Source: a virus. From it: 64,000 nucleotides of DNA. The notes under the pieces were generated by a model, which did no database searches, was not told the origin of the DNA, and was given only the letters and a program-made list of their open reading frames with translations. How positions within the stretch are numbered: position 1 is the stretch's first letter; the number at the start of each line of letters is the position of its first letter. Where the stretch lies: the IMG/VR virus record IMGVR_UViG_3300025137_000018, positions 62,380 through 126,379 of that record. One strand, 5' to 3'. The translations under genes were made by a program, and so were the position numbers. Below, in pieces: positions 13,311-62,826 of this stretch.

Positions 13311-14735
13311 ATGATTAATTTTAATGGCTACATCACAGAAGAAATAGAAAAACGCGGAGTCACAGAAGTTGTGGTATTAGCACTAGATGCTGATGAAGGA
13401 ACTGCTGCTGATATAATCTCTAATGTTTGTGAGTTTAACGATGTTAAATGTACAATTATACATACCAACAAAGCATTCCTAGCGGATAGCGATGTAGAAC
13501 TAAGAAAAGTTGAAATACATAATATTGATGGTGAAGGTAAACTTATATCTTTAGACATTGATAATACAATAGTTTTTGTTAGAGCAGGTGCTGTAGGAAC
13601 TTTAGTAGGGCAAGCATTAGTATCATCTTTACAGACAGCTGGATTCTTTTTAATAAATGATTTAGAATCCATGATGTTATGTAATAATAAAATGGCAACA
13701 AGTATTGCATTACAAAGAAATAATGTGCAGATACCTAAAACAGTTATTTTAAATAATGAAGAATCTATTGATTTAGCTGTAAAAAGCGTTGGTGGTAAAT
13801 ATCCATTAATCGTAAAAACACTTACAGGAACACAAGGTATTGGTGTATCTAAGATCGAATCGTATGATTCATTAATCTCAGTGTGCCAAACATTATGGAA
13901 GTTTGAAGCACAGCTGTTATTGCAAGAATATTTAGACATGAAATCTGATATTAGAACACTTGTAATAAATGGCCATATTATGGCATCAGCTGAAAGAAGA
14001 CAAACTAAAAAATCTAAGGACTTTAGAAAAAATGTTCATAGAGGTGCAGAAGCAATTCCATATAAACTATCTGAAGAAGAGGTAGAAGTAATACTAAATG
14101 CTGCTCGAGCAACTGGTGCATATTATTGCGGAGTTGATCATACAGTAGTTAATGGTAAAATATATGTTGTTGAAGTAAACGGTTCGCCTGGTGCTAAATC
14201 ACACTTTATGGGTTATGATTTAGAAACTAATAAACCTACTAAACCTTTAACTGCTGAGAAAGCAATTGATTTAATGATTAAACATATATTAGAACCCTAC
14301 AATAGAAAAACATGGTTTAGACAAGAAGCTGGTTATATAGAAACTGTATATATCGAAGGTTATAAACTACCTGTTAGAGCTAAATTTGATACAGGTAATG
14401 GTACAGATGCTTCCATGTTACATGTAGATAAAATAGAAATAAAAAATGATAAAGTGTATTGGGAAAAGAATGGTCAAAAATTCGTTAACAAATACCTTGG
14501 AAAATCAGTAGCGGTTAGAGGTCCTACCACCAGAATCGAAAGAGCTAAGGTAGAACTTACGATTAAATTTAATGGTAGATCATATAATGCATTTGTTGGT
14601 TTAACTGAAGAAGATTCAGCAAGTGAAATGTTAGTTAATAGAGAATTAATGACACTTATGAGAATAGCAATTAATCCAAGCTTAAGGTTTGGTATTAGTG
14701 ATTGGACAAGAAAGAACGATGAAACTGATGTTTAA
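13311..14735 (+). CDS. RimK-family ATP-grasp ligase fused to a C-terminal RimB-like (retropepsin-fold) protease domain
   Basis: NK, YPLIVKTLTGTQGIGV, LLQEY, DIR, DFRKNVHRGA, GVD, EVNGSPG (RimK); then RAKFDTGNG...SMLH and MLVNR (RimB-like). Confidence 0.88.
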   Translation: MINFNGYITEEIEKRGVTEVVVLALDADEGTAADIISNVCEFNDVKCTIIHTNKAFLADSDVELRKVEIHNIDGEGKLISLDIDNTIVFVRAGAVGTLVGQALVSSLQTAGFFLINDLESMMLCNNKMATSIALQRNNVQIPKTVILNNEESIDLAVKSVGGKYPLIVKTLTGTQGIGVSKIESYDSLISVCQTLWKFEAQLLLQEYLDMKSDIRTLVINGHIMASAERRQTKKSKDFRKNVHRGAEAIPYKLSEEEVEVILNAARATGAYYCGVDHTVVNGKIYVVEVNGSPGAKSHFMGYDLETNKPTKPLTAEKAIDLMIKHILEPYNRKTWFRQEAGYIETVYIEGYKLPVRAKFDTGNGTDASMLHVDKIEIKNDKVYWEKNGQKFVNKYLGKSVAVRGPTTRIERAKVELTIKFNGRSYNAFVGLTEEDSASEMLVNRELMTLMRIAINPSLRFGISDWTRKNDETDV

Positions 14736-14859
14736 TAATAGAAATATAAAAGTTAGGAAGATAGTTCCAGTGCATGCTTTAACCAAAATCCAGGAAGATA
14801 AAACTAAAAAAATTCCTAGGAAAGAGAAGCATAAGCATATAAATAGTTACGAGGTATAA
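14719..14859 (+). CDS. 46-aa very basic peptide (not in ORF track)
   Basis: MKLMFNNRNIKVRKIVPVHALTKIQEDKTKKIPRKEKHKHINSYEV; fills the gap between flanking genes. Confidence 0.45.
   Translation: MKLMFNNRNIKVRKIVPVHALTKIQEDKTKKIPRKEKHKHINSYEV
14838..14845 (+). promoter_or_regulatory. T4-type late promoter
   Basis: TATAAATA upstream of the 14862 ORF. Confidence 0.7.
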
Positions 14860-14861
14860 AA

Positions 14862-15128
14862 ATGGCAGATATAAATTTAGATTTTGATTTTGGTTTTACA
14901 GCCGTAGATGAAAATGAATTAGAAGCAGTACAGAAAGTTACGACACAAGCTTCTGATACATCAGCTAGTTTACAAGAAGCTGAAGAAAAATTAAATAAAT
15001 TATATAATGCTATATTACCTTTGCTAACTAACTTAAAGAAAAATCCAGAAAAAGAATATATTCTATGGCCAAATAGAGTTGACAAAATAGAACAATTCGA
15101 AGATTTAATATCAGGAATTATAAAATGA
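14862..15128 (+). CDS. late hypothetical protein
   Basis: DFDFGFTAVDE...PLLTNLKKNPEKEYILWPNR; GAGG RBS. Confidence 0.75.
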   Translation: MADINLDFDFGFTAVDENELEAVQKVTTQASDTSASLQEAEEKLNKLYNAILPLLTNLKKNPEKEYILWPNRVDKIEQFEDLISGIIK

Positions 15129-16546
15129 CAATAATATCGTCTGGACAAATAGCTTTACAAGATGGAGGAACTAATCCATCAACCACAGTAGAAAATAAGT
15201 TATACGATAATACTATGACATCAGGTGTTGATGCTTTACTTGAAATAATAAGAAAGTACGAGCTTCCTGGCGGTGATAGTTTTGATGATTTCGATGAATG
15301 GCGAGGAGATCTTTATGGTTTTAATTCAAGTTTTATTACCACAAGTCTTGCAGGAAATAGTATATTTAACTTTTTAGGTCAAGCTGGAAGTGGAGTACCT
15401 GCAGGAACTTTTCGAGGGTCGTCAGTATCAAATATTGGAACAGCCACAACTGCTTTTACAGATGGCGGTGGAACTTCTCGTACTATAAAAGGTATAATGT
15501 GGGGAATACCTGACGGATCTCCATCACCAAATAACACTAGTAAATGGTTAATATTTGCTCTTTCTGGAACTGGTATTTCTAATTCAGATACTACATTTAA
15601 AAGTATAAAAATTACTAAACCTAGTGGATCACAACAAACATTTACAAGATCTAGTGCATCAGAATACAGTTCAACTACCAATGGTTCTACTGCATGGGCT
15701 TGGGAAGTTGAGAGTTCTGGTACAACTACTATCGATAATTTAGGAACTAGTGGAAGTGGATGGGACATAGAAATATTTGGTTCAGATATTACAACGACAT
15801 TAAATAATGGTATTGCGGAAGAAATGGGCGGTGATGATAGTTCTAATGTTAAAATGTCAGATTATTATAGCCCTGGAACATTTATAGGTTCTGGTTTATC
15901 AGGTGTACCATCATCTGGTCAAATTAAATTTTCTGATTTTTACGGAAAAACACACATAGGGCTTGTAACATCTGCGGTTGAGATACAACCAGCTGCCAAG
16001 TATGAACTTATTAGCGGCCCTCGTGGCTATAGTTATGAAGCTATTCTTCATGGATTTGGACAAACGTATTCTAATACTTACGATAGTACTATTGGAACCG
16101 TCAATAGTAATATATCTAGTTCTATTAAAACAGACTCAGCTCAAGGCAGTGTTATAGGTAGTCCCGATTTAACTCTTTGGGGGCCAGCTGCAGGTACAAT
16201 AGGCACATTAAGATCAATAATGCACTCCTCATCAGGACCTAATCAATCAACAGATAACGTAATAATGATAGTAGAAGGTACAGGAAGTAATAGTAATGCT
16301 GGATTTACCAATTTAACAGCAACACGAAGTGGTATGACAACATTAACACTTGCAAGAAGTTCTGCTACTTACTATTATTCTTCAACCAATACAACAAGAA
16401 TATGGTTGTGGGCCGACGTTAATTATGCTACAGGTACCCCACTTTCGTTTACTGCTACTCATGAAAGTACATTGTTTCCAGGAGGAGCAGGTAGTGGTAG
16501 TGCAAATACAACAACAACTGATCGATCAACTTGGACAATATCATAA
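15125..16546 (+). CDS. Ser/Thr/Gly-rich virion or tail-fibre-associated protein
   Basis: SSGQIAL N-terminus; internal EMGG...MSDYY...VPSSGQIKFSDFYG module typical of tail-fibre tip proteins. Confidence 0.65.
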   Translation: MTIISSGQIALQDGGTNPSTTVENKLYDNTMTSGVDALLEIIRKYELPGGDSFDDFDEWRGDLYGFNSSFITTSLAGNSIFNFLGQAGSGVPAGTFRGSSVSNIGTATTAFTDGGGTSRTIKGIMWGIPDGSPSPNNTSKWLIFALSGTGISNSDTTFKSIKITKPSGSQQTFTRSSASEYSSTTNGSTAWAWEVESSGTTTIDNLGTSGSGWDIEIFGSDITTTLNNGIAEEMGGDDSSNVKMSDYYSPGTFIGSGLSGVPSSGQIKFSDFYGKTHIGLVTSAVEIQPAAKYELISGPRGYSYEAILHGFGQTYSNTYDSTIGTVNSNISSSIKTDSAQGSVIGSPDLTLWGPAAGTIGTLRSIMHSSSGPNQSTDNVIMIVEGTGSNSNAGFTNLTATRSGMTTLTLARSSATYYYSSTNTTRIWLWADVNYATGTPLSFTATHESTLFPGGAGSGSANTTTTDRSTWTIS

Positions 16547-16752
16547 TGTCAAATACAGCATACATAATAGTAGAAGATTGGGATACTCCAAACAGTACAT
16601 TAAAATGGGCTCAGTTTAGCTGGTCAGATGGATCTGCACAAATCCATGCAGTATTAGATTCAGAAGATAATACACTTATTGATGAAGCAGCAACACAATA
16701 TAAAGTTAATGAATGGGTCGAAGAACATCTACCATGGAATGAAACAGTATGA
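16546..16752 (+). CDS. small acidic hypothetical protein
   Basis: 68 aa, coupled to both neighbours. Confidence 0.55.
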   Translation: MSNTAYIIVEDWDTPNSTLKWAQFSWSDGSAQIHAVLDSEDNTLIDEAATQYKVNEWVEEHLPWNETV

Positions 16753-17501
16753 AAAATTGGATAGTAAATAGAGTATTCGATTACGCAATCGATAAAGAAA
16801 GAACTGAAGCATATTTGGAATTTATTAAAGCAAATGTTTCAGGTAAAACAGTAGTTGAACTAGGAGCTGGTTCAGGAATTATGGCATGGTTATGTGTTAA
16901 ACACGGTGCAACACATGTATATGCATATGAAAATAATAAAAGAATTATTAATTGGCTTAAAGTTTTGTTTAAAGACGAGGCCAAAGTAACTATTGTAGAA
17001 GAAAATGTATCTACAGCAACATTACGAGATGCAGATATATATTTACATGAACATTTTTCATCAAATGTTATTACGGAAGATATCTTAGGTTTATATGCTA
17101 ACCTTAAAGCTCAAAATTTAGAAGATAAAACATTCCCAAACAAATTAAAAATGCAATACGGAACATATGATGTAAGTAAAAATACAGATACAACGGGCGC
17201 AGATAGATATGCTGAAATTGATGATGCAGATATGCTAGAGTTTTTTGCAGCGTGTCCAATGGATGAAATAATGCCAGGTCTTGGATGGTTGCACAAACAA
17301 GTAGATGAAAGTGAAGTAACAATTAATGGAACTTTATTTGATGGAGATATAAAAGATTTAACACAGTTTACGGCCTCAGATACAAATGATGAATTAGTAT
17401 TTTGGGAAGCTACATTTAATGGAGCACATACTTTAAGTAATTGGAAAGGTAAAACTCATTGGAATACCATACCGATTGATAAAGTTGTGAATATGGAATA
17501 A
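16749..17501 (+). CDS. SAM-dependent methyltransferase, PRMT-like
   Basis: D.ERT.AY, VVELGAGSG (motif I), VYAYE (post-I), E-x8-E loop (EHFSSNVITE), C-terminal THW. Confidence 0.75.
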   Translation: MKNWIVNRVFDYAIDKERTEAYLEFIKANVSGKTVVELGAGSGIMAWLCVKHGATHVYAYENNKRIINWLKVLFKDEAKVTIVEENVSTATLRDADIYLHEHFSSNVITEDILGLYANLKAQNLEDKTFPNKLKMQYGTYDVSKNTDTTGADRYAEIDDADMLEFFAACPMDEIMPGLGWLHKQVDESEVTINGTLFDGDIKDLTQFTASDTNDELVFWEATFNGAHTLSNWKGKTHWNTIPIDKVVNME

Positions 17502-18049
17502 TGACATTACCATCAGCTGGAAACACAATAAGTTTTGGACAACTTCAAACGGAGTTTGGGGGATCTAACCCTATATCTATGAATGAGTATGGAGATAAAA
17601 TTGGTTTAACTGTCGGCACTACCTCAACTCATGATATGGCTGATTTTTATGGCCTTAGTAATAACTTAGGAACTATTGGTATTACTCCAGGTAGTAGATT
17701 TGTTGGTAAAGCAAATAGACGTCATCATGGTTACGAGTCATCTCCTGCTAACGGTTCTATTCAGACATCAACTCCTGTTAGTATGAATGGAGCTACTATT
17801 ACTCCAACACAAATGAAATGGATAGATGTTATTGGTTGGAGATTCCAAGCTACAATTAATAGCGGAACGTGGAATACAACTGCTTGGACAAAGTTCAGAG
17901 TTATAGATGATAATGATGACGAAAGTGATGTAAATTTAGAAAGGTCTACAGTAACTTCTCAGTCAGTAGTTGGAAGTCAGCTTGTTATCGTCTGGCCAGC
18001 TGAAGATCAAAATGTCTATGGAGGCACTCTGACATGGGAGTTAACATAA
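17501..18049 (+). CDS. tail-fibre-associated protein
   Basis: MTLPSAGNTISFGQLQTEFGGSNPISMNEY...MADFYG module shared with 15125..16546. Confidence 0.65.
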   Translation: MTLPSAGNTISFGQLQTEFGGSNPISMNEYGDKIGLTVGTTSTHDMADFYGLSNNLGTIGITPGSRFVGKANRRHHGYESSPANGSIQTSTPVSMNGATITPTQMKWIDVIGWRFQATINSGTWNTTAWTKFRVIDDNDDESDVNLERSTVTSQSVVGSQLVIVWPAEDQNVYGGTLTWELT

Positions 18050-18050
18050 A

Positions 18051-18971
18051 ATGAAAATATTACTTGTAGGTATGCCAACAACATTTGATTATTTGGTAAC
18101 ACCCCTTACTGCGGCTGGACATACTGTACGATTAATTGATGGCACAGACCAAGATTTTTCTTTATTAACTAATGCAACATTAGCTAAGGATTATATCCTA
18201 GAACAAATTGCTGCTTTTGTTCCAGATATGGTAGTTAATGCAATTACACCGGTAGTTCTTCCTGTATCATCAGATTATACTTATGTAGGTAATACTGCAG
18301 CAAGTGCGAAATTAGAAACTCATAAGTGGGAAACAAGAACAAAGGCTGGAGAGTTAGGTTGGTCATTACCTACAGTGTTAGAAGAATGTAATATGAATGC
18401 TGTATCTAATTATGATAAAACAGTATATGTAAAACCTAAAGGCGACTGTCAATTAAGACAAATATTTAAAGTACCTGCATCAACAAATAATGAACTACAT
18501 AATTTAGAGATGACTGCAGATGCAGGATATGTAGAAGATGGTGTTGACTATGAAGTTGAAGCTTGGTGCTTCTTTACTATATCTAATGGATCATATTCTA
18601 TAATAAGAACATTAGGTTGTACTGGATATGGAAATGATAAATTAGTAGATTCAACAGGTGACTGGAGACAAGGTGATATCACTCTGGTAGATTTAACTGA
18701 CGCTCAACGAGCTGCATTCATTACAAAATGCGAAGCATGGTTAGACTATGCAGTAACCTTAGGTGGAAATTACGAAGGAACCTTAGGTGGAGCAATTACT
18801 GACGATAATACTGTATATTGGTTTGAACAAAACAGTAGACCTGGAACGTATAACATAGGAATGTTACCTGGGACAGTACAAGATTGGATTGATGGACTAA
18901 CCACCGATTCAACTAAATCTGTTAATCAAATAACGGCAGCAACGATAAGATCCGAAAAGGGATTTGGCTAG
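18051..18971 (+). CDS. divergent ATP-grasp protein (PurD-like features)
   Basis: YVGNTAASAKLETHK..., VYVKPKG, YVED, FEQNSRPG (E-x-N-x-R). Confidence 0.6.
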   Translation: MKILLVGMPTTFDYLVTPLTAAGHTVRLIDGTDQDFSLLTNATLAKDYILEQIAAFVPDMVVNAITPVVLPVSSDYTYVGNTAASAKLETHKWETRTKAGELGWSLPTVLEECNMNAVSNYDKTVYVKPKGDCQLRQIFKVPASTNNELHNLEMTADAGYVEDGVDYEVEAWCFFTISNGSYSIIRTLGCTGYGNDKLVDSTGDWRQGDITLVDLTDAQRAAFITKCEAWLDYAVTLGGNYEGTLGGAITDDNTVYWFEQNSRPGTYNIGMLPGTVQDWIDGLTTDSTKSVNQITAATIRSEKGFG

Positions 18972-18973
18972 AT

Positions 18974-19303
18974 ATGACTATAAATTTTAAAAATACTTGG
19001 AGACCATTACCAAGTTGCGTAACTATAAAGGAAAGTACAATAGATGGTTTAGGACTATTTGCTGTTGAGAATATACCCTTAGGCACTGACTTAGGATTAA
19101 TGAGATTTATGTATCATGATACATTTGTAAGAACAGCTCTAGGATCTTTTTCTAATCACTGTGAAGAACCTAACTGTGTTAACATGAGCAGTATTAATGA
19201 GCATGGAGACGAAGAGTATACTTTAGTTACTAATCAAGATATCAAAATTGGAGATGAGTTAACGCTTTGTTATCAAATGAAGCAGTATTATATAGGAGAA
19301 TAA
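18974..19303 (+). CDS. SET-domain protein (putative lysine methyltransferase)
   Basis: ESTIDGLGLFA..NIP.GT, NHCEEPNC, DIKIGDELTLCY. Confidence 0.88.
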   Translation: MTINFKNTWRPLPSCVTIKESTIDGLGLFAVENIPLGTDLGLMRFMYHDTFVRTALGSFSNHCEEPNCVNMSSINEHGDEEYTLVTNQDIKIGDELTLCYQMKQYYIGE

Positions 19304-19304
19304 A

Positions 19305-19769
19305 ATGTTTTTTAATAAAAATAAAGATATTGATGTAGATCAATTAAGAGAACAATTAATAATAGACGAGGGTCAGGTAAATGAAATATATCATGATCAC
19401 CTTGGCTATGCTACATTTGGCATTGGACATTTGGTATTGGAAGGAGACCCAGAATTCGGGTTGGCGTTGGGTACTGCAGTCTCAGAGGATAGAGTTATAT
19501 CATGCTTCGCCAAGGATGTAGAGACAGTCATAAGTGATTGCATAAAATTACACAACGGGTGGGATGGATATCCACAAGAAGTAAAACAAGTCATTGCGAA
19601 CATGATGTTCAACATGGGACTTACGCGCTTAAGTAAATTTAAAAAGCACAATGCAGCGCTGCAGTGTGGTGATTGGCCGGTAGCGGCTATTGAAGGGAGA
19701 GATTCAAGATGGTACAAGCAAGTAACGAACAGAGCAGAAAGACTTATGGGAAGATTAGAGGCCCTTTAA
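19305..19769 (+). CDS. T4-lysozyme-like endolysin (GH24)
   Basis: DEG...IY.DHLGYATFGIGHL (E-x8-D-x5-T triad), NMMFNMG, SRWYKQV.NRA.RL. Confidence 0.92.
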   Translation: MFFNKNKDIDVDQLREQLIIDEGQVNEIYHDHLGYATFGIGHLVLEGDPEFGLALGTAVSEDRVISCFAKDVETVISDCIKLHNGWDGYPQEVKQVIANMMFNMGLTRLSKFKKHNAALQCGDWPVAAIEGRDSRWYKQVTNRAERLMGRLEAL

Positions 19770-19900
19770 AGGTCGAATCTAGTATTCCACAAGAGAAACA
19801 AGAAAATAAGGGTTGGTATTGGTGTCATGAAAAGCAAGGTCTTTTTAGACACTCAGACTGGCATAAATCAATAAATGAACTTAATTTAAGCAGTTCATAA
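19709..19900 (+). CDS. possible small hypothetical protein (start uncertain)
   Basis: Open frame with GWYWCHE fills the gap after the lysozyme. Confidence 0.35.
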   Translation: MVQASNEQSRKTYGKIRGPLKVESSIPQEKQENKGWYWCHEKQGLFRHSDWHKSINELNLSSS

Positions 19901-19913
19901 TAAGGAGAAAGAA

Positions 19914-20165
19914 ATGGCAAGTACAATTAAACTTTTAGGATCTCAAACAGATCTTACATCAGCTACTACAGTAGGAGAAGCCACAGTTGTTAGAGTATTA
20001 GCAACTGCAGCTGGAACTATAACGCAAAAAGCAGCAGCTGCTGGAGCTACCATAGGTACTATTCAGATGTTAGCAAATACAGAAATCGTATTGGCTAAAG
20101 CACCTGCTAATACTTTAGAAGGTGGTGCAACATTTAAAGTAGTTAAAATCGCTTACAGCAATTAA
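19914..20165 (+). CDS. small Ala/Thr-rich hypothetical protein
   Basis: 83 aa, AAGGAG RBS. Confidence 0.65.
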   Translation: MASTIKLLGSQTDLTSATTVGEATVVRVLATAAGTITQKAAAAGATIGTIQMLANTEIVLAKAPANTLEGGATFKVVKIAYSN

Positions 20166-20176
20166 GTTAATGCCGT

Positions 20177-20494
20177 ATGATAGATATAACCGAGATAGCA
20201 CATGAAAAACTCGTCGAAAAGACGCGCAAAGCTGGTAACAATATTATCAGAATTGGGCTACTTCCTGCTGGTTGCAACGGTTGGAAATACCAGTTTGTAT
20301 TTGTTACTGAGAGCGATCCAGACGACCACATAATAGATTATGGCGATTATATCTTAGTTGTTGAAACAGGCCAGCTTCATAACTTTATGAATATGACCCT
20401 TGATTATCAAACCGAGGGTCTAAATTCAGAATTTAAATTCTTAAATCCAAACGAGGTCGCGTCCTGCGGCTGTGGACAATCAATATCGTTCTAA
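20177..20494 (+). CDS. iscA: Fe-S cluster carrier, IscA/HesB family
   Basis: AGCNG..Y, LDY..EGL...FKF.NPN...SCGCGQS. Confidence 0.92.
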   Translation: MIDITEIAHEKLVEKTRKAGNNIIRIGLLPAGCNGWKYQFVFVTESDPDDHIIDYGDYILVVETGQLHNFMNMTLDYQTEGLNSEFKFLNPNEVASCGCGQSISF

Positions 20495-20505
20495 ACAATT
20501 AATCT

Positions 20506-20513
20506 TATAAATA
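20506..20513 (+). promoter_or_regulatory. T4-type late promoter heading the curli-like operon
   Basis: TATAAATA 6 nt before ATG 20520. Confidence 0.75.
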
Positions 20514-20519
20514 GATTAT

Positions 20520-20816
20520 ATGGAAGATTTGTTTACTTTAATTAGAGATGTCGGCGTGCCGATTGCAGCTGCAGTATCATGTGGTGTCTTTGTATTTATA
20601 GTAATTAAACAAATATTTAGTGGTGTATTAGATCAAATAACCACATTAACAATATTTACCAAATCTCTAGAAAATAGAGCTAGATCTATGAATAACGAAA
20701 TTATTAAAATTGATTTATTAGTATCTAGTGCTTTAGAGTTAACCCCACCTATAGACCGAGTGGCTCGAGCTGAAAATTTTGCAGAGGACGGGAAAATCGA
20801 TACAAGAAGAGACTAG
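20520..20816 (+). CDS. single-pass membrane protein with coiled coil
   Basis: N-terminal TM (VGVPIAAAVSCGVFVFIVI) followed by heptad repeats. Confidence 0.7.
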   Translation: MEDLFTLIRDVGVPIAAAVSCGVFVFIVIKQIFSGVLDQITTLTIFTKSLENRARSMNNEIIKIDLLVSSALELTPPIDRVARAENFAEDGKIDTRRD

Positions 20817-20822
20817 TAAACT

Positions 20823-21089
20823 ATGGACATAGCTGGATTAATTATAGAATTCGGATTTGAAACAATTGCTTTAGTAGGTCTCGGATATTTTGTTTTTTAT
20901 GTATGGCAATTTGTATCAAACGACTTGGAACCAAAGATTGAAGAAATGCATTTCGGTTTAATACGTTTAATAGACCAAGTTAGAATGCTTGATCAAGATA
21001 TGATTAGATTACAAGAAAAGGTTAAAGTTGTACTAGAGTATAGAGAAAGACAGAAAATATTAGATATGGAAAACAAAAATGAAGATTAG
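20823..21089 (+). CDS. single-pass membrane protein with coiled coil
   Basis: N-terminal TM, then LIRLIDQVRMLDQDMIRLQEK; same architecture as the previous ORF. Confidence 0.7.
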   Translation: MDIAGLIIEFGFETIALVGLGYFVFYVWQFVSNDLEPKIEEMHFGLIRLIDQVRMLDQDMIRLQEKVKVVLEYRERQKILDMENKNED

Positions 21090-21561
21090 AAATATAGCAT
21101 TCATAGGAATGGTAATATCATTTTCAGTATATGCTGATGAAATTAAATTTGGATTTAAAAATCCATCGTTCAGTGGATCTGGAACAGGAGCACATTATTT
21201 AACGATTGAGAACCAAGAACATTCTCGTAAAAAGGCGATTGAAGATGCTTTAGAAGCTGCAAGAAAAGCTGCAGAAAGAGAAGCTGAAAACTCTACAATG
21301 GCCAAGTTTATTAGAAACTTGGAGAGTAGAATATACTCTCAGATGTCAAAACAATTAGTTGAATCTATGTTTAGTAACGATGGGTCAGTAAGATTTGGTT
21401 CATTTACATTAGAAGGTAATGTAGTAACATACGAAGTACTTATTAACGAAGACGGTACAGAATATATTAAAATGACCATTGTAGATTCAGATGGAACTAC
21501 AACCGTTATTGAAATACCAGTAGGAACTGGCAACTTTGGGCAAGATCCAGATGTTGGTTAA
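21079..21561 (+). CDS. csgF: curli assembly component CsgF-like
   Basis: Signal peptide, then FGFKNPSFSG (cf. CsgF F.F.NP.FGG); F..NLESRIYSQ.S; G.F; TTVIEIP. Confidence 0.85.
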   Translation: MKIRNIAFIGMVISFSVYADEIKFGFKNPSFSGSGTGAHYLTIENQEHSRKKAIEDALEAARKAAEREAENSTMAKFIRNLESRIYSQMSKQLVESMFSNDGSVRFGSFTLEGNVVTYEVLINEDGTEYIKMTIVDSDGTTTVIEIPVGTGNFGQDPDVG

Positions 21562-22561
21562 GTATATTTTAGTATTGTTAATGCTTAGCGGATGCGCATC
21601 AGTTCCGCAGTGGAGTCCAAATCCTCAAGATTGTAATGACCTATCAGGAAAGTACGCTCAAGGTTGGAAAACAGATGTTGATAATGATGGTATTATAAAT
21701 GATACTGCCTGGGATGTAGCTAAACAAGGATATATGGGTTATAAAAAGGCAATGGCAAGAAAGTATATTTGCGTTGATGAACCCACTGCAGTTAGATTAC
21801 CTGCATATGTAGATTTATTAAATCTACCTCCAGCAAAGGATATGCCGGTTGTTGCAGTATACGCATTTAAAGATCTAACAGGACAAAGAAAATCAGTAGA
21901 TAATATAGCATCGTTCTCTACTGCAGTTACCCAAGGCGGTACTGAATTATTAATAGATGCTCTCAAAACTGCAGGTGGCGGAACCTGGTTTAGAGTAGTA
22001 GAAAGACAAGGGATTGATAATCTTGTAAGGGAAAGACAAATTGTAAGATCGACCCGACAAGATGTTGCTAAAGCCGAAGGGACTGAAGCACGAGGAGTTG
22101 GACCTCTCTTATTCGCTGGAATGATTATAGAGGGAGGTATTATTGGTTATGATGCTAATACGGAAACAGGTGGACGCGGCGCACGAACACTTGGTATAGG
22201 TTTTAGTAAAATGTATCGTAAAGACGTTGTTACAGTTTCTGTGAGAGCAGTATCTGTATTAACGGGTGAAGTTTTGTTAAACGTCCAAAGTAAGAAATCG
22301 GTATTATCTTACGGAAGTGGTGGTGACTTGTTTAGATTTATTGAACAGGGAACACAACTTATAGAATATGAGGACGGTGTAGGTAATAATGAGTCAGTAA
22401 CATATGCAGTTAGAGCTGCTATTGAAGCTGCAGTTTTGGAATTAATCTACCAGGGTCATGACCGTAAATTCTGGGATATAACCGCGGGTCATCGTCATCC
22501 ACATCAATTTGATGGCAAAAACGATAAACACGCAATTAACGAGGAAAACGAAAATGAATAA
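21551..22561 (+). CDS. csgG: curli secretion channel CsgG lipoprotein
   Basis: Lipobox LSGC; LPP, VAVYAFKDLTGQRK, FSTAVTQG, WFRVVERQGIDNLVRERQIVR, IIEGGIIGYD, TGGRGAR, D.VTVSVRAVSV.TGEVL. Confidence 0.95.
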   Translation: MLVKYILVLLMLSGCASVPQWSPNPQDCNDLSGKYAQGWKTDVDNDGIINDTAWDVAKQGYMGYKKAMARKYICVDEPTAVRLPAYVDLLNLPPAKDMPVVAVYAFKDLTGQRKSVDNIASFSTAVTQGGTELLIDALKTAGGGTWFRVVERQGIDNLVRERQIVRSTRQDVAKAEGTEARGVGPLLFAGMIIEGGIIGYDANTETGGRGARTLGIGFSKMYRKDVVTVSVRAVSVLTGEVLLNVQSKKSVLSYGSGGDLFRFIEQGTQLIEYEDGVGNNESVTYAVRAAIEAAVLELIYQGHDRKFWDITAGHRHPHQFDGKNDKHAINEENENE

Positions 22562-23294
22562 ACTTTTAAGTATAGTTGTCTTAGGACTATTATCAACATC
22601 GTTTGTTTATGCTGCAGCTACTGATGATAACGAAATTAGAATAGATCAAACTGGTGACACTTTAATCTTATATATCGATCAAGTAGGTTTTGGTAACAAA
22701 ATAGGACTCACCGATTACTCTGGAAGTCCTGCAGATATGACAATAATAGGTTCAAGCTTAACATTTAATCTTGACCAGATTGGTAATCAGAATTTAATCT
22801 ACGGCCCGCTGAAGCTAGACTCATCTTCTTTAACATTCAATTTAACTGGAGATTCAAATAAGGTAGATTGGGATATAGGTACAACAGGTAGTTCTGATAC
22901 TACTAATTATGCCTTTGCTGTTACTGGAGATAGTAATACATTTGATATAGACCAAGGTAAAGTTGGAGCAAGTGCTGAAAGATTAGATGCTGATTTAATA
23001 TTAATTGGTAACTCAAACGTATTTGATTTAGATTTTGAAACCGATGATGTAACTTGGAATTTTGAAATTACTGGAGACAGTAATAATGTTAATACATTAC
23101 AGAAAGATGGTTCACAAAAAATAACGCTTGAATTAGTAGGTGATAGTGCAGATATTGATATTAATCAATTATCAGGTACATGTGCTGCTAGTGGCGGAGG
23201 TTGTGCAACTCCTAATGCAATTATAAATTTAGATATTACATCAGACAATGCTAAGATTCAGATCAACCAGAAAGATTCTGGTAGCGACTCTTAG
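22554..23294 (+). CDS. secreted curlin-repeat (CsgA/CsgB-like) beta-solenoid protein
   Basis: Signal peptide; repeats of alternating hydrophobic residues with Q-x-G-x-x-N or TGDSN (IDQVGFGN, LDQIGNQN, LTGDSN, VTGDSN, ITGDSN). Confidence 0.72.
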   Translation: MNKLLSIVVLGLLSTSFVYAAATDDNEIRIDQTGDTLILYIDQVGFGNKIGLTDYSGSPADMTIIGSSLTFNLDQIGNQNLIYGPLKLDSSSLTFNLTGDSNKVDWDIGTTGSSDTTNYAFAVTGDSNTFDIDQGKVGASAERLDADLILIGNSNVFDLDFETDDVTWNFEITGDSNNVNTLQKDGSQKITLELVGDSADIDINQLSGTCAASGGGCATPNAIINLDITSDNAKIQINQKDSGSDS

Positions 23295-24357
23295 TTTACT
23301 ATTCATCACTGGAATCGCCTATGCTGATTCCATTGGTGACATAGTAGAGTCAACTGGCATCGGCCAGATTGTTCGTAATAATGAACAAATAGTAGTAGCT
23401 AATGCATTAGCAATAGAACTAAATGATGAAGCAAAAACTGGTAACGGAAGAATGCTTATTGAGTTTTTAGATAAGGCTCAATTATCCTTAAAGGAACATT
23501 CTGAAGTACTAATAGACGAAATATATTATGACCCTGATCCTTCACTCTCAAAAATGAGTATGAAGTTTACAATGGGAACGGCAAGATTCGCATCTGGAAG
23601 ATTAGGATTAGTGAATAAAGCCAATATTGATATCAAGACTCCTACGGCCTCAATTGCCGTACGGGGAACTGATTTTACAACAACAGTAGATGAGTTAGGT
23701 AGAAGCCTAATCATATTACTACCAGATGAGAATGGTGACCCATCTGGTGAGATAGTAGTTTCTAATGAAGGCGGAGTAGTTACATTAAACGAAGCCTATG
23801 CCGCAACAATGGTATCATCATTAGATTCATCACCAACACAGTCAATCGTAGTGAATGGTATTACACCAGCATTAATTGACAATATGTTTATTGTATCACC
23901 TCCACCGGCAGTTGCTGAAAGAATACAAGAAGAAATGGCCGATGAAGCGAACGAAGACCAAGGGCTATTAGATATAGATTTTTTAGAGTTCACTGAGTTA
24001 GAAGAAGATGAGTTAGAAGAAGATGAACTTGAAGATTTTACCGAACTGGATATTGATGAATTAAGTGTCGATTTTTTAGTAGATGTATTAAACGCCATAG
24101 ACAATTCAGATGTTCTAAATACAATAGGCGAATTTAATATCAAAGGTGCTAGTAAAGGATTTAATATTAAATCCCAATGGAATGTTTTTTTACAAGATGG
24201 CGATTTAGTATTGTATAGAAGCGTTAATGGTGTTATAAGTGTTAAAATAGGTGCAGCTGGTAATTTTGCATTAGAAGCTATAACTCCAACTTGGGACGGA
24301 CTAATAACTGGAAACGAGGGTGATGATATCCTCATTTATATAAATCAGGTGAATTAA
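23248..24357 (+). CDS. exported FecR-domain protein with acidic linker
   Basis: Signal peptide; D.AKTGNG..., FLDKAQLSL.EHSEV, GTARF, IKTPTASIAVRGTDF (FecR N-domain); poly-E/D tract. Confidence 0.85.
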   Translation: MLRFRSTRKILVATLSLLFITGIAYADSIGDIVESTGIGQIVRNNEQIVVANALAIELNDEAKTGNGRMLIEFLDKAQLSLKEHSEVLIDEIYYDPDPSLSKMSMKFTMGTARFASGRLGLVNKANIDIKTPTASIAVRGTDFTTTVDELGRSLIILLPDENGDPSGEIVVSNEGGVVTLNEAYAATMVSSLDSSPTQSIVVNGITPALIDNMFIVSPPPAVAERIQEEMADEANEDQGLLDIDFLEFTELEEDELEEDELEDFTELDIDELSVDFLVDVLNAIDNSDVLNTIGEFNIKGASKGFNIKSQWNVFLQDGDLVLYRSVNGVISVKIGAAGNFALEAITPTWDGLITGNEGDDILIYINQVN

Positions 24358-24358
24358 T

Positions 24359-25132
24359 ATGTTAGATAAATTAGAAGAATATTCAATGAAAGCTTTAATA
24401 TGGGCAAGTGTTTTATTTTGGCCTATTATTATATTGTCACTACTTTTAGCACCACTGTTTGCAAATGCTGATGATAATATTATTACTATGGAACAAACAG
24501 GTGATACCTTTCAATTAGGTGTTGATCAATTTGGTTATAGTAATGAAATTAAAATGCTAGATGGTAATTCATATATTACAGCCACAAGTTTAGATATGTA
24601 TTTAGTCCAGGTTAATACAAGTACTGGTGCACTTCCTAATAAAATTACATTCGATGAAATAAGTGGAACAGGTAATCAAATGAAATTAGCTCAAGGTGTT
24701 GCATGGAATACTCTTGATTCTGACACTGATTTAACTTGGTCGCATGATAGTTATGAAGGGGGCGGCCATGAAATTGATATTATTATGTACGGTGACAACA
24801 ATAAATTAGCAGTTCAACAAACGAACCAAACTGGTGCAGCCGACGGACATAACTTTGATCTACATTTAGCTGGTGATAATAATGAAGTTAAAATAAAACA
24901 ACAAAGTAATGGTTCTAAGACTATTGACCTAACAATTTACAATGATAATAACGATGTGTTTATTCGTCAATATGGTCAAGGGTCATCACACAATGCTAAT
25001 ATTACGTTAGATGGACTATATAACACTGATTTAATTTTAAAACAATTAGGTACATCAGGTTCCAATGCATACACACTTAACCAAAACTGTTTTACAGTTG
25101 GTGGTTGCTCAGTGTCAGTAACTCAGGAGTAA
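24359..25132 (+). CDS. second secreted curlin-repeat protein
   Basis: Signal peptide; DDNIITMEQTG, VDQFGYSN, YGDNNKLAVQQ, AGDNNEVKIKQ, NDNNDVFIRQYG; C-terminal CFTVGGC. Confidence 0.75.
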   Translation: MLDKLEEYSMKALIWASVLFWPIIILSLLLAPLFANADDNIITMEQTGDTFQLGVDQFGYSNEIKMLDGNSYITATSLDMYLVQVNTSTGALPNKITFDEISGTGNQMKLAQGVAWNTLDSDTDLTWSHDSYEGGGHEIDIIMYGDNNKLAVQQTNQTGAADGHNFDLHLAGDNNEVKIKQQSNGSKTIDLTIYNDNNDVFIRQYGQGSSHNANITLDGLYNTDLILKQLGTSGSNAYTLNQNCFTVGGCSVSVTQE

Positions 25133-25703: not shown

Positions 25704-25975
25704 CAATAGAATGCCCAGAAGAATATTATGAGTGTCTTACCGAAGAAGAATATGATGAAATATTAGAACTCTTCGAAGAGAATGAAATATCATTTCCAGA
25801 TTCAATTCAACCAGAAAGCGTAAGCGATGCACAAGCAGTAGCTGATTTTACGTGGCAAGTGCTATTCTTATCTCCATGGGAATTAGCTTATATAGCTTTA
25901 CCAATGAGCGTATTAGCCTTTTATGGATTAACTATATACGCTATTTTTAAATGGGTCCAGAGAAAATTTAGCTAA
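25700..25975 (+). CDS. membrane protein with acidic N-terminus
   Basis: CPEEYYEC acidic N-part; hydrophobic C-terminal segment. Confidence 0.65.
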   Translation: MTIECPEEYYECLTEEEYDEILELFEENEISFPDSIQPESVSDAQAVADFTWQVLFLSPWELAYIALPMSVLAFYGLTIYAIFKWVQRKFS

Positions 25976-27813
25976 TGAAACTAATAACCAGTATTTGGAC
26001 AACCATAATACTGTCACTTATTCTTATAGGTATAAGAATAATTGATCCTAGCTTTGTTCAGCAGTTAAGATTAAACACTTTTGATCAATATATTTCTACC
26101 ATTCCAGAAAAGAAATCAGATATAGTTCTACTGAATATAGGAGAAGAATCCTTAGGTTTATTAGGACAATATCCATTCCCTCGTCAAACTTACGCACAAT
26201 TAATATCTGATTTAAGGAATGCTAATGCAGGATTAATTGGATTTACTTTAATGTTTCCAGAGGCTGATAGATTCGGTGGAGACGAAGTGTTTGCTTCTTG
26301 GGTAAATGATAATGGTATTATCTTATCTCAGGATGCAGATGAAAATGGAAGAAGTACTAAAGCACCCTATGTTGGTTCAGTAACATTTGGTACAGGTGAT
26401 CCATTAGATTGGGCTATAAGATATAAAGGATTAGTTACAAATATAACTGAAATAGAACAAGGTGCATGGGGTACTGGATTAATAAATGGCATGCCAGAAG
26501 TCGATGGATTAGTGCGTAGAATACCTTTGTTAAGTCAAATTAATAAGGAACTATACCCATCGTTTGCACTAGAACTTCTTAGAGTATCTAATGAACGATT
26601 ATCTTATACTGTAAAAGTTAATGATGTAGGTATAGAAGAAATAATTATTAGGCCATTTAGAATTACTACAGATCCTAATGGATCATTCTGGATTAACCAT
26701 AATTATACCTTTACGGAAATAGAGGTCGGGACCAAGCTACCTGATCTTCAGGGCCAAACAGTTCTAATTGGACTGACAGCGAAGGGATTAGCGGCCCAGA
26801 TTCCAACTCCTGCTGGTCTTCAATCAGCTCATCATATTCAGGCTGCGTCCATCCAGTCAATAATGGATGAAATATCGATATCTCGTCCTCTCTGGGCGGA
26901 TTTAATTGAAATCCTGGTAATGCTAATTGCCTCGGGACTCTTAATCTATATTGTGTATTACCGTTCGATTCGTTCATCAGCCATAATCTTCGTTGGGATT
27001 GCGATCTCGACCGGAGCTTCTGTTGCATACGTCTGGAATGAATGGGGAATTCTCCTTGATATTAGTTACTTTTCACTATTATATATAATAGTATTCTCAT
27101 CAGCAAGTTTTAATAATTTTTATAAACAATATATGTTAAGGCAACAGATAAAGAAACAGTTTGAGACCTATTTAGATCCTAAACAAGTATACCTATTACA
27201 GAAAAATCCAGGTTTATTAAAGCTTGGTGGAGAGCGAAAACAGATGTCGTTTCTTTTTATGGATATTGTAGGCTTTACTCCTATATCAGAACACTATAAG
27301 AACAATGATGATCCAGAAGGATTAGTAGAATTAATTAATGAATTTCTTAATGCAATGACAAATATTATTCTTGCAAATGGTGGTACTATTGACAAATATA
27401 TGGGGGACTGTATAATGGCATTTTGGAATGCTCCATTACCCTGTGAAAATCACGCTGAAATGGCAGTTAAATCAGCGATAGAAATAGAGACTAAAACAAA
27501 TGAACTTAAAGAGTTATATTCTGCCAGGGGTTTGCCTGACATTAATGTTGGTACTGGCGTTAACACCGGTGATTGTATTGTTGGTAACATGGGTAGTGAA
27601 TCCAGATTTGACTACTCGGTTATTGGAGATGCAGTCAATCTTGCCGCGAGGCTTGAGGCTACCGCTGCAAGGCATGAATATATAGAATATAAAACCATCA
27701 TTTCTGAGGATACTTACAGCAGGTTACCCTCTAGCCTAAAATGCACAAAAATTGGCCAAATAACTGTAAAAGGTAAAAAAGACCTTATAACCATATATTC
27801 TCCTTCGTTATAA
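25975..27813 (+). CDS. CHASE2-domain membrane adenylate cyclase (class III)
   Basis: N-terminal TM; CHASE2 motifs (LGQYPFPR, DGLVRRIPL, YPSFALE); three TMs; FMDIVGFT, DKYMGD, GNMGS..RFDYSVIGDAVNLAARLE, VKGK. Confidence 0.95.
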   Translation: MKLITSIWTTIILSLILIGIRIIDPSFVQQLRLNTFDQYISTIPEKKSDIVLLNIGEESLGLLGQYPFPRQTYAQLISDLRNANAGLIGFTLMFPEADRFGGDEVFASWVNDNGIILSQDADENGRSTKAPYVGSVTFGTGDPLDWAIRYKGLVTNITEIEQGAWGTGLINGMPEVDGLVRRIPLLSQINKELYPSFALELLRVSNERLSYTVKVNDVGIEEIIIRPFRITTDPNGSFWINHNYTFTEIEVGTKLPDLQGQTVLIGLTAKGLAAQIPTPAGLQSAHHIQAASIQSIMDEISISRPLWADLIEILVMLIASGLLIYIVYYRSIRSSAIIFVGIAISTGASVAYVWNEWGILLDISYFSLLYIIVFSSASFNNFYKQYMLRQQIKKQFETYLDPKQVYLLQKNPGLLKLGGERKQMSFLFMDIVGFTPISEHYKNNDDPEGLVELINEFLNAMTNIILANGGTIDKYMGDCIMAFWNAPLPCENHAEMAVKSAIEIETKTNELKELYSARGLPDINVGTGVNTGDCIVGNMGSESRFDYSVIGDAVNLAARLEATAARHEYIEYKTIISEDTYSRLPSSLKCTKIGQITVKGKKDLITIYSPSL

Positions 27814-61219: not shown

Positions 61220-62826
61220 TGGCTAATTTAACAAGAATAAAAATCTTAACTACGGGTGCAACCACCAATGCCCCTAGTAATATTAAAACAGGTGAATTAG
61301 CATACTCATATGTAGCTGGTACACAAGCAAATAATGGTGATAGATTATACATTGGTACTGGAACAGAATCTGGTGGGGTTGCTTCTAGTGTCGATTTAAT
61401 TGGCGGTAAGTATTTTGTAGGATTACTCGATCATGTACATGGTACTACAACAGCAAGTTCTGCGTTAATCGTAGATGCTCAGAAACACGTAACAGAATTA
61501 AATATTGGCTCTCTTGCTCTTGAAGCTTCTGGTGGTTCAGGTCAAGTAGTAACAAGTATTTCTACTTCAACAACTTTAGCTGGAGCTTCTAACTCTCAGT
61601 TAGTTACAGCATTAGCCGCTAAGACTTATATTGACGCTCAAGTCACAGCTCAAGATTTAGATATATCTGGTGACTCTGGTACAGATTCAATTGATCTTGA
61701 TTCTGAAGTATTAGACTTTAATGGTCTTACTGGTATTACAACCTCTGTTACTTCTAATACAGTTAACATCGATCTAGATGATACTGCGGTAACTCCTAAC
61801 AGTTACGGATCTAACACACAAATTCCAACCTTTACAGTTGACCAACAAGGTAGATTAACAGCTGCTGGTCAAGTTGCTGTTGCAACAGCATTAACAGTTG
61901 ATGGCGATACTGGTGCACAAGATGTAAATATTCTAACAGATGATTTACAAATACTTGGAACAACCAATGAAATTGAAACAGCTGTAACTAAGGTAGGTTC
62001 AGATGTAAAAGTTGTTGTTGGATTACCTAATGATGTTACTGTAGGAAATGATTTAACAGTAACAACAGATTTAGTAGTAGGTTCAAACAAATTAACAGTC
62101 GCAGGTGCTACTGGTAATACAGTTGTTGATGGTACATTACAAGTTAATGGTAACGTTAGCCTTGGTAACGCAACTTCAGACACAGTCGTAATTGCAGGTA
62201 ACTTAACAGTTCAAGGTACTACAACAACAGTCGAATCAACTACTGTAACATTAGACGACCCGGTTATTGCTTTAGCAGATAATACTTCTTCAAATACGTC
62301 AGATGGTCTTGATCGTGGTGTAAGATTTAAATGGGGAACTGGTTCTGCAGTTGCTACTGGATTCTTTGGATTTGACATCCAGTCACAAAGATTTGTATTT
62401 ACTAAAGATGAAGATTTAAGTGGTGGAGAAAACGCTTCCGCACCATGGAGTGATGCTGAATTTGGAAACATTTATGGTACAGGTGCTGATCTTGGTAATA
62501 TCACAGTTGGTATTGCTGATGACCAAACTATTACCACAACGGCTGGTAAGTTAGTACTTGATTCAGCTACTAATGAAGTTGAAGTAAATGCAGACCTTGA
62601 CCTAAATGGTAATCTAGATGTATCAGGAACTGTAACACTTGGTACTGATCTTGCAGTTCTTCACGGTGGTACTGGTGTATCAAGCTTTACAGGTAACGGT
62701 GTATTTATATCAAACGGTGCAGGTACTGCTTTATCACAAGTAACTGGTACTCAAGGTAAACTTATACAGTTTAATGGTTCAGGTGTTCCTTTCGCTTCTG
62801 AAGTAATTGATGGCGGAACTTACTAA
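61219..62826 (+). CDS. tail fibre / virion protein
   Basis: GELAYSY...RLYIG N-terminus, VTPNSYG...IPTFTVDQQGRLTAA, GNLTVQGTTTTV, C-terminal DGGTY. Confidence 0.8.
   Translation: MANLTRIKILTTGATTNAPSNIKTGELAYSYVAGTQANNGDRLYIGTGTESGGVASSVDLIGGKYFVGLLDHVHGTTTASSALIVDAQKHVTELNIGSLALEASGGSGQVVTSISTSTTLAGASNSQLVTALAAKTYIDAQVTAQDLDISGDSGTDSIDLDSEVLDFNGLTGITTSVTSNTVNIDLDDTAVTPNSYGSNTQIPTFTVDQQGRLTAAGQVAVATALTVDGDTGAQDVNILTDDLQILGTTNEIETAVTKVGSDVKVVVGLPNDVTVGNDLTVTTDLVVGSNKLTVAGATGNTVVDGTLQVNGNVSLGNATSDTVVIAGNLTVQGTTTTVESTTVTLDDPVIALADNTSSNTSDGLDRGVRFKWGTGSAVATGFFGFDIQSQRFVFTKDEDLSGGENASAPWSDAEFGNIYGTGADLGNITVGIADDQTITTTAGKLVLDSATNEVEVNADLDLNGNLDVSGTVTLGTDLAVLHGGTGVSSFTGNGVFISNGAGTALSQVTGTQGKLIQFNGSGVPFASEVIDGGTY

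Follow-up and report, generated by a model that had tools for sequence, protein, structure and literature searches.

Work on protein arginine methyltransferases (PRMTs) has treated them almost only as regulators in eukaryotes, and a gene with their signature motifs in a phage genome raises the question of whether a virus can possess an enzyme of this family and, if so, which protein it would modify. The gene lies in a 64,000-nucleotide (nt) stretch of viral DNA (here called the window), which is positions 62,380 to 126,379 of IMG/VR record IMGVR_UViG_3300025137_000018, a record of 126,379 bp that is estimated to be 70% complete. An earlier note, made from the letters alone, had read its 250-residue product as a compact PRMT-like enzyme that may methylate arginine on virion or host proteins. 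Here we present evidence from sequence profiles and a predicted structure that supports the assignment of this protein as a compact, apparently intact PRMT-family member of an uncultured marine T4-like phage. We also put forward, more tentatively, a candidate substrate: the product of an upstream gene, F1, which carries an invariant arginine in a GxRG β-hairpin.

A phage protein with the motifs of arginine methyltransferases

The gene and the motifs of its product are as follows.

16749..17501, plus strand: compact PRMT-like methyltransferase dependent on S-adenosylmethionine (SAM), 250 amino acids (aa), ATG start, recognized by its open reading frame (ORF), homology and fold
nt 16791-16814, plus strand: D15-K-E-R18-T19-E-A-Y22, N-terminal helix motif
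nt 16851-16877, plus strand: VVELGAGSG, motif I, residues 35-43
nt 16917-16931, plus strand: VYAYE, post-I motif, residues 57-61
nt 17049-17078, plus strand: E101-HFSSNVIT-E110, double-E loop with two Glu nine residues apart, aligned to the double-E loop of PRMT3 and Hmt1
nt 17454-17462, plus strand: T236-H237-W238, THW-loop position, aligned to ETHWG of a canonical-length PRMT

Every motif named in the earlier note (DxxRTxxY, VVELGAGSG, VYAYE, EHFSSNVITE and THW) is found in this 250-aa ORF. A phmmer comparison of the single protein with all PDB sequences returned PRMTs in the best 40 rows, including PRMT6 (E = 2.4e-5), Trypanosoma brucei PRMT7 (3.9e-5) and PRMT3 (5.9e-5), with the first non-PRMT protein in row 41 (E = 0.034); D15, R18, T19 and Y22 were aligned with 'DQVRTEAY' of PRMT6. 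When a profile of 37 compact family members was compared with the same sequences, PRMTs made up 59 of the 60 matches listed, with E values of 4.9e-21 for PRMT3, 2e-19 for Hmt1 and 6e-19 for PRMT1, the last over profile positions 13-235. In the profile alignment, motif I and E61 were matched to the PRMT3 and Hmt1 motifs, and E101 and E110 fell on both glutamates of the double-E loop (SEWMG...E) of these two enzymes, a pair that lies after strand β4 and corresponds to E144 and E153 of PRMT1. Alignment by hhalign to 15 longer PRMT-like relatives (374-526 aa) extended over 231 columns (probability 99.9, E = 1.3e-34) and placed THW on ETHWG of P0099, a PRMT-like protein of canonical length. The Glu pair and the THW therefore co-align with catalytic elements of PRMTs in the profile and hhalign alignments.

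Curated family collections returned generic rows below their cut-offs. The best Pfam rows were RrnaAD (22.5 bits against a cut-off of 24, residues 32-97) and PrmA (17.2 against 22, residues 29-67), and NCBIfam gave ksgA (25.9 against 171 bits), Erm (26.2 against 212) and prmA (18.5 against 183); the E values of these sub-threshold rows were 7e-5 for RrnaAD, 4.5e-6 for Erm, 5.5e-6 for KsgA and 0.0038 for PrmA. The PHROGs match, phrog_5108 'SAM-dependent methyltransferase', was also sub-threshold (E = 0.0049), and the matches in all three collections were confined to the SAM-binding motif region, residues ~20-97. Neighbouring clusters in the Atlas carried partial PrmA or RrnaAD labels and were mostly virus-only clusters of 'hypothetical proteins'. 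PrmA is the usual automatic label for such proteins.

The predicted fold is that of a PRMT

An AlphaFold2 model built on the 37-sequence alignment (predicted local distance difference test (pLDDT) score 94.7, predicted template-modelling score 0.91) has strands at residues 34-38, 56-60, 80-83 and 97-100 in its Rossmann half. All 50 matches listed by Foldseek for this model were PRMTs, with E values of about 1e-10 and template-modelling scores of 0.57-0.63 on the query. VIA-align gave Z scores of 17.4 to T. brucei PRMT7 (root-mean-square deviation 3.4, 206 residues aligned), 16.9 to PRMT6 and 16.1-16.2 to PRMT3, Hmt1 and PRMT1, in alignments that cover model residues 1-250 and nearly whole target chains, with 200-213 residues aligned; this whole-length alignment includes the C-terminal β-barrel, in a reduced form. 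The Z scores for PRMT7, PRMT6, PRMT3 and PRMT1 are near-tied (spread about 1.3) and do not separate product types (monomethylarginine, asymmetric or symmetric dimethylarginine; types I, II and III). Model helices 150-155, 160-167 and 171-177 coincide with the segment that the profile aligned to the dimerization arm of PRMT3; PRMTs need to dimerize.

A search of the whole PDB (48,161 chain representatives), independent of Foldseek, placed PRMTs, PRMT5 and PRMT9 among them, at ranks 1-15 (Z 16.0-10.9), followed by generic class I methyltransferases at Z ≤ 9.8, such as PrmA (Z 9.6, 134 residues aligned) and DIMT1, KsgA and Erm (Z 9.1-9.8). Neither a full-length match to PrmA, with its N-terminal L11-binding domain, nor one to KsgA or Erm, with their C-terminal helical RNA-binding domain, was found by Pfam, NCBIfam or VIA. 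The earlier note had proposed a structure comparison and had named PrmA or small-molecule methyltransferases as the matches that would count against it; what came out was a whole-length match to PRMT1, PRMT3, PRMT6 and PRMT7, with PRMTs on top of the 48,161 chains. Because the model matches PRMTs throughout and the Glu pair and THW align with catalytic elements, the description 'compact PRMT-like enzyme' is borne out by both sequence-profile and predicted-structure matches. Membership of the PRMT family by descent is very probable, and it is likely, with less certainty, that the phage enzyme methylates arginine in proteins.

The catalytic residues are conserved in a compact phage clade

A word-indexed search found 31 relatives with 40-96% identity, all metagenomic, and an exhaustive search of representatives yielded 300 proteins at E ≤ 1e-3, 34 of them at ≤ 1e-10. 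E101 and E110 are each kept in 29/29 close relatives. D15, R18, the three motif-I glycines (G39, G41 and G43), E61 and W238, the Trp of THW, are kept in all 28 close relatives that cover those positions, and D15, R18, T19, motif I and E61 are invariant across a 16-sequence alignment. Among 47 distant compact relatives, 42 have E and 4 have D at the position of the first Glu, and 44 have E at that of the second. Searches of 50,697 GenBank phage records gave no match, either by tblastn at E ≤ 1e-3 with three family members (P0001, the relative from the terminase context of locus L013, and P0034) or by megablast with window positions 14000-22000. A pattern scan of the genomes of 185,579 species returned just three weak partial matches (33-66 residues, 39-52% identity) and, because the method is limited by its pattern, does not prove absence.

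Longer relatives (374-434 aa; P0069, P0084, P0101, P0107 and others) share the motifs MLxDxxR, GxGxG, E...E and xHW, and the compact phage forms are a clade apart from them (Shimodaira-Hasegawa-like approximate likelihood-ratio test (SH-aLRT) 97). Nine of the long proteins, of ~400 aa (P0069, P0084, P0107, P0125, P0150, P0161, P0177, P0178 and P0180), have a common N-terminal extension of ~100 residues before the catalytic core. Of 30 proteins scanned against Pfam, 4 matched PRMT_C. Two groups of loci carry the gene between the terminase genes: in L013-L018 it is intact (295-322 aa), and in L019-L023 (for example L019:5869-6989), between the small- and large-subunit genes, it is reduced to a 188-aa N-terminal half in which the first catalytic Glu is replaced by Lys, and is followed by an unrelated 185-aa ORF. 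The L019-L023 version looks like a decayed copy and shows how decay looks in this enzyme family.

Four features count against an active enzyme of this family. Pfam PRMT_C is unmatched in the window's protein at E ≤ 1. The chain stops 12 residues past THW, where canonical PRMTs go on with more barrel strands, so that part of the barrel is absent. YFxxY, which in an N-terminal lid helix defines type I PRMTs, is not found in the residues before D15; as only 14 residues (MKNWIVNRVFDYAI) stand there, the lid helix of type I enzymes is lacking. Finally, the His of THW varies among the close relatives (H in 10, S in 11 and T in 7 of 28). PRMT5 has Ser at this place (FSW).

A conserved upstream partner carries an invariant arginine

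The candidate substrate is encoded upstream of the enzyme.

15125..16546, plus strand: F1 protein, 473 aa, candidate substrate, comprising an extra domain at the N terminus, a linker motif (...SDYY/...SDFYG) and a β-sandwich at the C terminus (residues about 281-473)
16016..16027, plus strand: G298-P299-R300-G301 of F1, tip of the GxRG hairpin, with the candidate methyl-acceptor arginine

Pairing of the two genes was followed in 23 IMG/VR loci that encode an enzyme relative and in a metagenome set of 67 loci, 23 of them at ≥ 54% enzyme identity. An F1 homologue stands directly upstream of the enzyme, or with a small ORF between, in 11/11 viral loci at ≥ 54% identity (the window and ten others). 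It stands directly upstream on the same strand in 22 of the 23 metagenome loci at that identity, the 23rd being cut at the contig start, and in none of the 11 metagenome loci at 24-43%. Because at least three contigs are common to both sets, the two counts are not fully independent. The pairing thus spans 54% to 98% enzyme identity with its orientation preserved. Viral scans that started from F1 gave 13 loci. Ten contigs among them were already in the set with the enzyme, and the 2 new ones break off ≤ 340 nt past F1, a stretch in which a PRMT start could not be detected; the scans so supplied no independent case of F1 with or without the enzyme. In L007-L010, a tail-fibre gene of 1353-1696 aa precedes F1 and a gene resembling 2-oxoglutarate (2OG) oxygenases follows the enzyme. 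The latter (for example L009:6846-8681), directly after the PRMT-like gene, encodes a 611-aa protein that matches PHROG 61 '2OG-Fe(II) oxygenase' (E = 8.3e-111) and is possibly a protein or nucleic-acid oxygenase adjoining the methyltransferase.

RG and RGG are the classical target motifs of PRMTs. R300 and G301 are invariant in 11/11 F1 proteins and kept in 24/26 of a wider set (24-72% identity), the exceptions being P0206 and P0209. P0206 and P0207, otherwise near-identical F1 proteins, differ in the hairpin (GRGSF against GPPFF) such that the candidate acceptor arginine is lost in one, either as a natural variant or through a sequencing frameshift. In a model of F1 residues 226-473 (pLDDT 74.2 overall, about 85 over the sandwich), the C-terminal ~190 residues form a β-sandwich, and GxRG forms the tip of the hairpin that joins model strands 65-72 and 78-86. 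The pattern G[GP]RG occurs in 55 of the 859 ORFs of all loci, nearly all of them F1, the second-clade partner D1 described below, CsgG or the T4-like portal.

The second enzyme clade (36-43% identity) is separate (support 100) and not sister to the F1-linked clade. In five loci (L055-L058 and L063; for example L057:401-1844), three tandem paralogues of 139-178 aa lie upstream of the PRMT-like gene. Only the paralogue adjacent to the enzyme, D1, has a GGRGG-type loop, with GG-R-[GY]-[GS]-x-x-Y in 5/5 loci. Comparison of F1 with D1 by hhalign gave a probability of 0.8%, with the hairpin segment alone aligned, and the two are apparently unrelated, homology being undetectable at the sequence level.

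Several observations count against F1 as the target. Other clades of the enzyme have neither an F1 nor a D1 neighbour; their genes lie between those for the terminase subunits, or follow either an ORF of 84 aa or a 2OG-oxygenase-like gene. R411 of F1 is as invariant as R300, G[GP]RG is also present in CsgG and the T4-like portal of these loci, and a 182-aa F1-like ORF of the window is without GxRG. Foldseek found no relative of the F1 fold in the PDB at E ≤ 1e-3 (best 0.063). With VIA, the highest Z among the 48,161 chains was 4.1 (the MATH domain of TRAF6), which points to no recognized family, and there was no Pfam or PHROG match. The basis for the assignment is adjacency and motif. We nevertheless consider F1 a plausible, tentative candidate for the enzyme's target, and it is probably a virion or host-interaction protein.

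The gene run and its surroundings

The phage is a T4-like myovirus. The window contains a T4-like core (ribonucleotide reductase, PhoH, gp32, and baseplate gp6 and gp8) together with CsgF and CsgG curli genes, which one report describes as typical of the hypervariable region of pelagimyophages (PMC7029224), a report in which methyltransferases and arginine go unmentioned; because of these two features, the phage looks like a pelagimyophage. Between 14862 and 19769, successive ORFs either abut or share 1-4 nt. Besides F1 and the PRMT-like gene, this run comprises the following.

14838..14845, plus strand: TATAAATA, site resembling T4-type late promoters, 17 nt ahead of the run's first ORF
14862..15128, plus strand: 88-aa ORF heading the run, 4-nt overlap with the F1 start; equivalently placed homologues in L001 and L003-L006; unmatched in Pfam and PHROGs
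16546..16752, plus strand: small ORF of 68 aa (ATG) or 73 aa (TTG at 16531), overlapping F1 and the PRMT-like gene; conserved in L003-L005; no family match
17501..18049, plus strand: 182-aa ORF, 1-nt overlap with the PRMT-like stop; shares only the N-terminal ~50-residue F1 motif
18051..18971, plus strand: 306-aa ORF; no Pfam, PHROG or PDB-sequence match
18974..19303, plus strand: minimal SET-domain protein, 109 aa; Pfam SET E = 1.8e-8, 35.2 bits against a cut-off of 22.4
19305..19769, plus strand: phage lysozyme, end of the tight run; Pfam Phage_lysozyme E = 1.3e-5; directly after the PRMT-like gene in L003-L006

The 182-aa ORF had no family match and by BLASTP was 53-57% identical to the F1 proteins of L007-L009 over residues 1-51/66. 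The SET protein is a putative protein-lysine methyltransferase; as its gene shares the run of the PRMT-like gene, two types of protein methyltransferase would stand together. SET-domain homologues also adjoin the F1 gene in L003 and L006.

We take TATAAATA to be the T4 late-promoter consensus. The window has 12 copies on the plus strand, and for nine of them the first ATG of an ORF of ≥ 80 aa follows within 100 nt, where random placement gives 1.05 and none of 2000 draws reached nine; the copies include sites ahead of baseplate and tail-fibre genes. Placement alone stands out, since the window's 17 copies overall are within what chance would give (13.3 expected). Metatranscriptome contigs from four libraries of three studies match parts of 14800-18100 at 90-99% identity, and one of 2120 nt spans 16475-18100; as DNA carry-over is possible for all of these and there is no silent control, they are not counted as transcription.

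Immediately before the run (13311-14735, plus strand), with its own TATAAATA site just upstream, is a gene for a 474-aa RimK-like ATP-grasp protein (Pfam RimK E = 3.8e-33), which by its family assignment is a further protein-modifying enzyme of the region; its C-terminal ~145 residues weakly match 'putative ATP-dependent zinc protease' (E = 0.0022, below the cut-off). Beyond the run, all on the plus strand, are an IscA/HesB-type iron-sulphur cluster assembly protein (20177-20494; Pfam Fe-S_biosyn E = 5.5e-12) and, at 21079-25132, CsgF (E = 3.7e-15), CsgG (E = 5.8e-51) and then a FecR-domain protein. Two ORFs (22509-23294 and 24359-25132, plus strand) have weak Curlin-repeat matches (E about 0.002, below the cut-off) and could be the CsgA and CsgB equivalents reported as missing in PMC7029224. 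A 612-aa fusion of a CHASE2 sensor and an adenylate/guanylate cyclase catalytic domain follows at 25975-27813 (plus strand; E = 1.2e-37 and 5.1e-21).

Proposed mechanism and alternative explanations

We propose that the Rossmann half binds SAM through motif I (G39-x-G41-x-G43), E61 and the N-terminal helix (D15-x-x-R18-T19-x-x-Y22), and that E101 and E110 would clamp the guanidinium group of the substrate arginine in a pocket closed by the reduced β-barrel with the W238 loop. The SAM methyl group would then be moved to a terminal guanidino nitrogen. Because the gene lies in a tight run behind a T4-type late-promoter-like site, the enzyme would be expressed with the late genes. The likeliest substrate would be F1 at R300, at the tip of the GxRG β-hairpin, where methylation would alter how charge is distributed, and hydrogen bonds are made, on an exposed loop. 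Taken as a whole, this chain, a phage protein-arginine methyltransferase acting on F1, in which we infer catalysis, the arginine acceptor, the target, late expression and the virion role, is a working proposal that we regard as credible but short of probable. A wider version is more doubtful: a 'writer plus substrate' cassette of marine T4-like phages, in which a minimal PRMT would methylate the invariant arginine of F1, a late virion or host-recognition protein, and which would have arisen independently in the second clade with its GGRGG partner.

The strongest competitor to methylation of F1 accepts an active protein arginine methyltransferase and differs in its targets, which would be host proteins or other phage proteins, with the F1 pairing a matter of shared regulation or of a mobile cassette. 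The homology and fold evidence applies equally here. Most compact phage clades have no F1 or D1 neighbour, so the compact family as a whole cannot depend on F1. The arginine-directed ADP-ribosyltransferases of T4 are a parallel for arginine modification in host takeover. The gene lies in a variable region between replication and structural modules, as such regions are described in PMC7029224, and methyl-arginine on host proteins such as DnaK was seen only under phage infection in Cellulophaga, according to another study (PMC13288928). Against this, the F1 pairing is strict and oriented from 54% to 98% enzyme identity, and both the invariant RG hairpin and the unrelated RGG-bearing neighbour of the second clade would have to be coincidence. 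We consider this explanation unlikely, although it deserves serious attention.

A small substrate is less easily reconciled with the data. In this case a PRMT-fold guanidino-N methyltransferase would modify arginine in its free form, a metabolite with a guanidino group or a short peptide, like bacterial relatives in gene clusters for secondary metabolites or ribosomally synthesized and post-translationally modified peptides. Free-arginine N-methyltransferases do occur in natural-product pathways, a truncated barrel could fit a smaller substrate, and the longer relatives have an extra N-terminal domain of about 100 residues. A literature search on free-arginine methyltransferases turned up nothing of use. 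However, the surrounding genes are phage genes with no biosynthetic neighbours, the compact phage forms split from the long ones (SH-aLRT 97), and the protein retains those helices and loops by which PRMTs form their peptide groove. This makes a small substrate improbable.

We give very little weight to a catalytically dead 'prozyme' or a module that binds arginine or RG loops: the barrel is truncated, the lid helix is missing, the THW His varies and some PRMT paralogues are inactive (the T. brucei PRMT1 prozyme, 6dnz chain D, to which the model aligned at Z 14.1, is one), but the SAM-binding and catalytic residues are under clear purifying selection in the 29 close and most of the 47 distant relatives, and the visibly degenerate L019-L023 version contrasts with the intact enzyme. 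An ordinary class I methyltransferase with a superficial resemblance to PRMTs, whether PrmA-like (L11 lysine or N-terminal methylation) or KsgA/Erm-like (ribosomal RNA adenine dimethylation), is highly improbable, because the RrnaAD, Erm, KsgA and PrmA rows that, together with partial cluster labels, suggest it stay below curated cut-offs and within the SAM-binding region, its structural Z scores of 9.6 (PrmA) and 9.1-9.8 (DIMT1, KsgA and Erm) compare with 16-17 over 200-213 aligned residues for PRMTs, and conservation extends to the elements specific to PRMTs (N-terminal helix, double-E loop and W loop).

Implications

With every catalytic residue present in a chain of 250, the phage version would be the smallest PRMT core in nature and would offer a simple way to study how the fold works. 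Should F1 prove to be methylated, the pair would supply a genetic basis for the methyl-arginine on phage structural proteins described in the accessible part of PMC13288928. It would also be a phage-owned counterpart to the host-dependent methylation of a tail protein for mycobacteriophage adsorption that the available text of PMC13445384 reports. Because the phage looks like a pelagimyophage, any effect on adsorption would concern viruses of highly abundant marine bacteria. If the cassette reading is correct, this would be the first virus-encoded protein arginine methyltransferase with a dedicated target, built on a minimal core ~60-100 residues smaller than any studied. A literature search that had subscription journals outside its scope found no paper describing a phage-encoded PRMT.

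Comparison with known systems

The closest likeness is to the cores of eukaryotic type I and type III PRMTs (PRMT6, PRMT3, PRMT1/Hmt1, CARM1 and T. brucei PRMT7). Shared with them are a Rossmann SAM-binding half followed by a β-barrel, the DxxRTxxY helix, motif I, the post-I Glu and an identically spaced double-E loop, as well as the arm-aligned segment and a (T/S)-x-W loop ahead of the last strands; VIA Z scores of the phage model to these cores are 15.5-17.4 over model residues 1-250. The phage enzyme differs in its size, 250 aa against ~310-350 aa for a PRMT catalytic core, which makes it 60-100 residues shorter than the cores studied. Unlike type I PRMTs, it has no YFxxY lid helix before the DxxRT helix, it has ~44 residues fewer inside the aligned region than a canonical-length relative, and its identity to eukaryotic PRMTs is 16-24%.

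PrmA shares the class I fold and a similar motif I. Its structural match reaches Z 9.6 with 134 residues aligned, against 16 with about 205 for PRMTs, and PrmA has no double-E loop or THW loop. The bacterial PRMT-like 'peptide methylases' of Aravind and co-workers (PMC3417536) have the same catalytic motifs (hhalign probability 99.9). These and the other long relatives have the ~100-residue N-terminal extension and a full barrel, both of which are missing from the compact phage forms in their separate clade, and the compact forms are in phage genomes and not in biosynthetic operons. The remark in the earlier note that PRMTs are mostly described outside bacteria and phages stands for experimental work but not for computation, in which these bacterial homologues had been noted.

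The nearest functional parallels are phage structural or adsorption proteins whose methylation is a functional step. In a mycobacteriophage, methylation of the tail protein Gp34 depends on the host protein MepM and is required for adsorption (PMC13445384). In Cellulophaga phages, methyl-lysine and methyl-arginine were found on phage proteins, both structural proteins and a putative tail fibre, in what the study calls the first such report (PMC13288928). The methyltransferases in those cases are host-encoded or unidentified and are not PRMTs (a 'MetT-like' domain and an ELS motif site are given), whereas the writer predicted here is encoded by the phage and belongs to the PRMT family.

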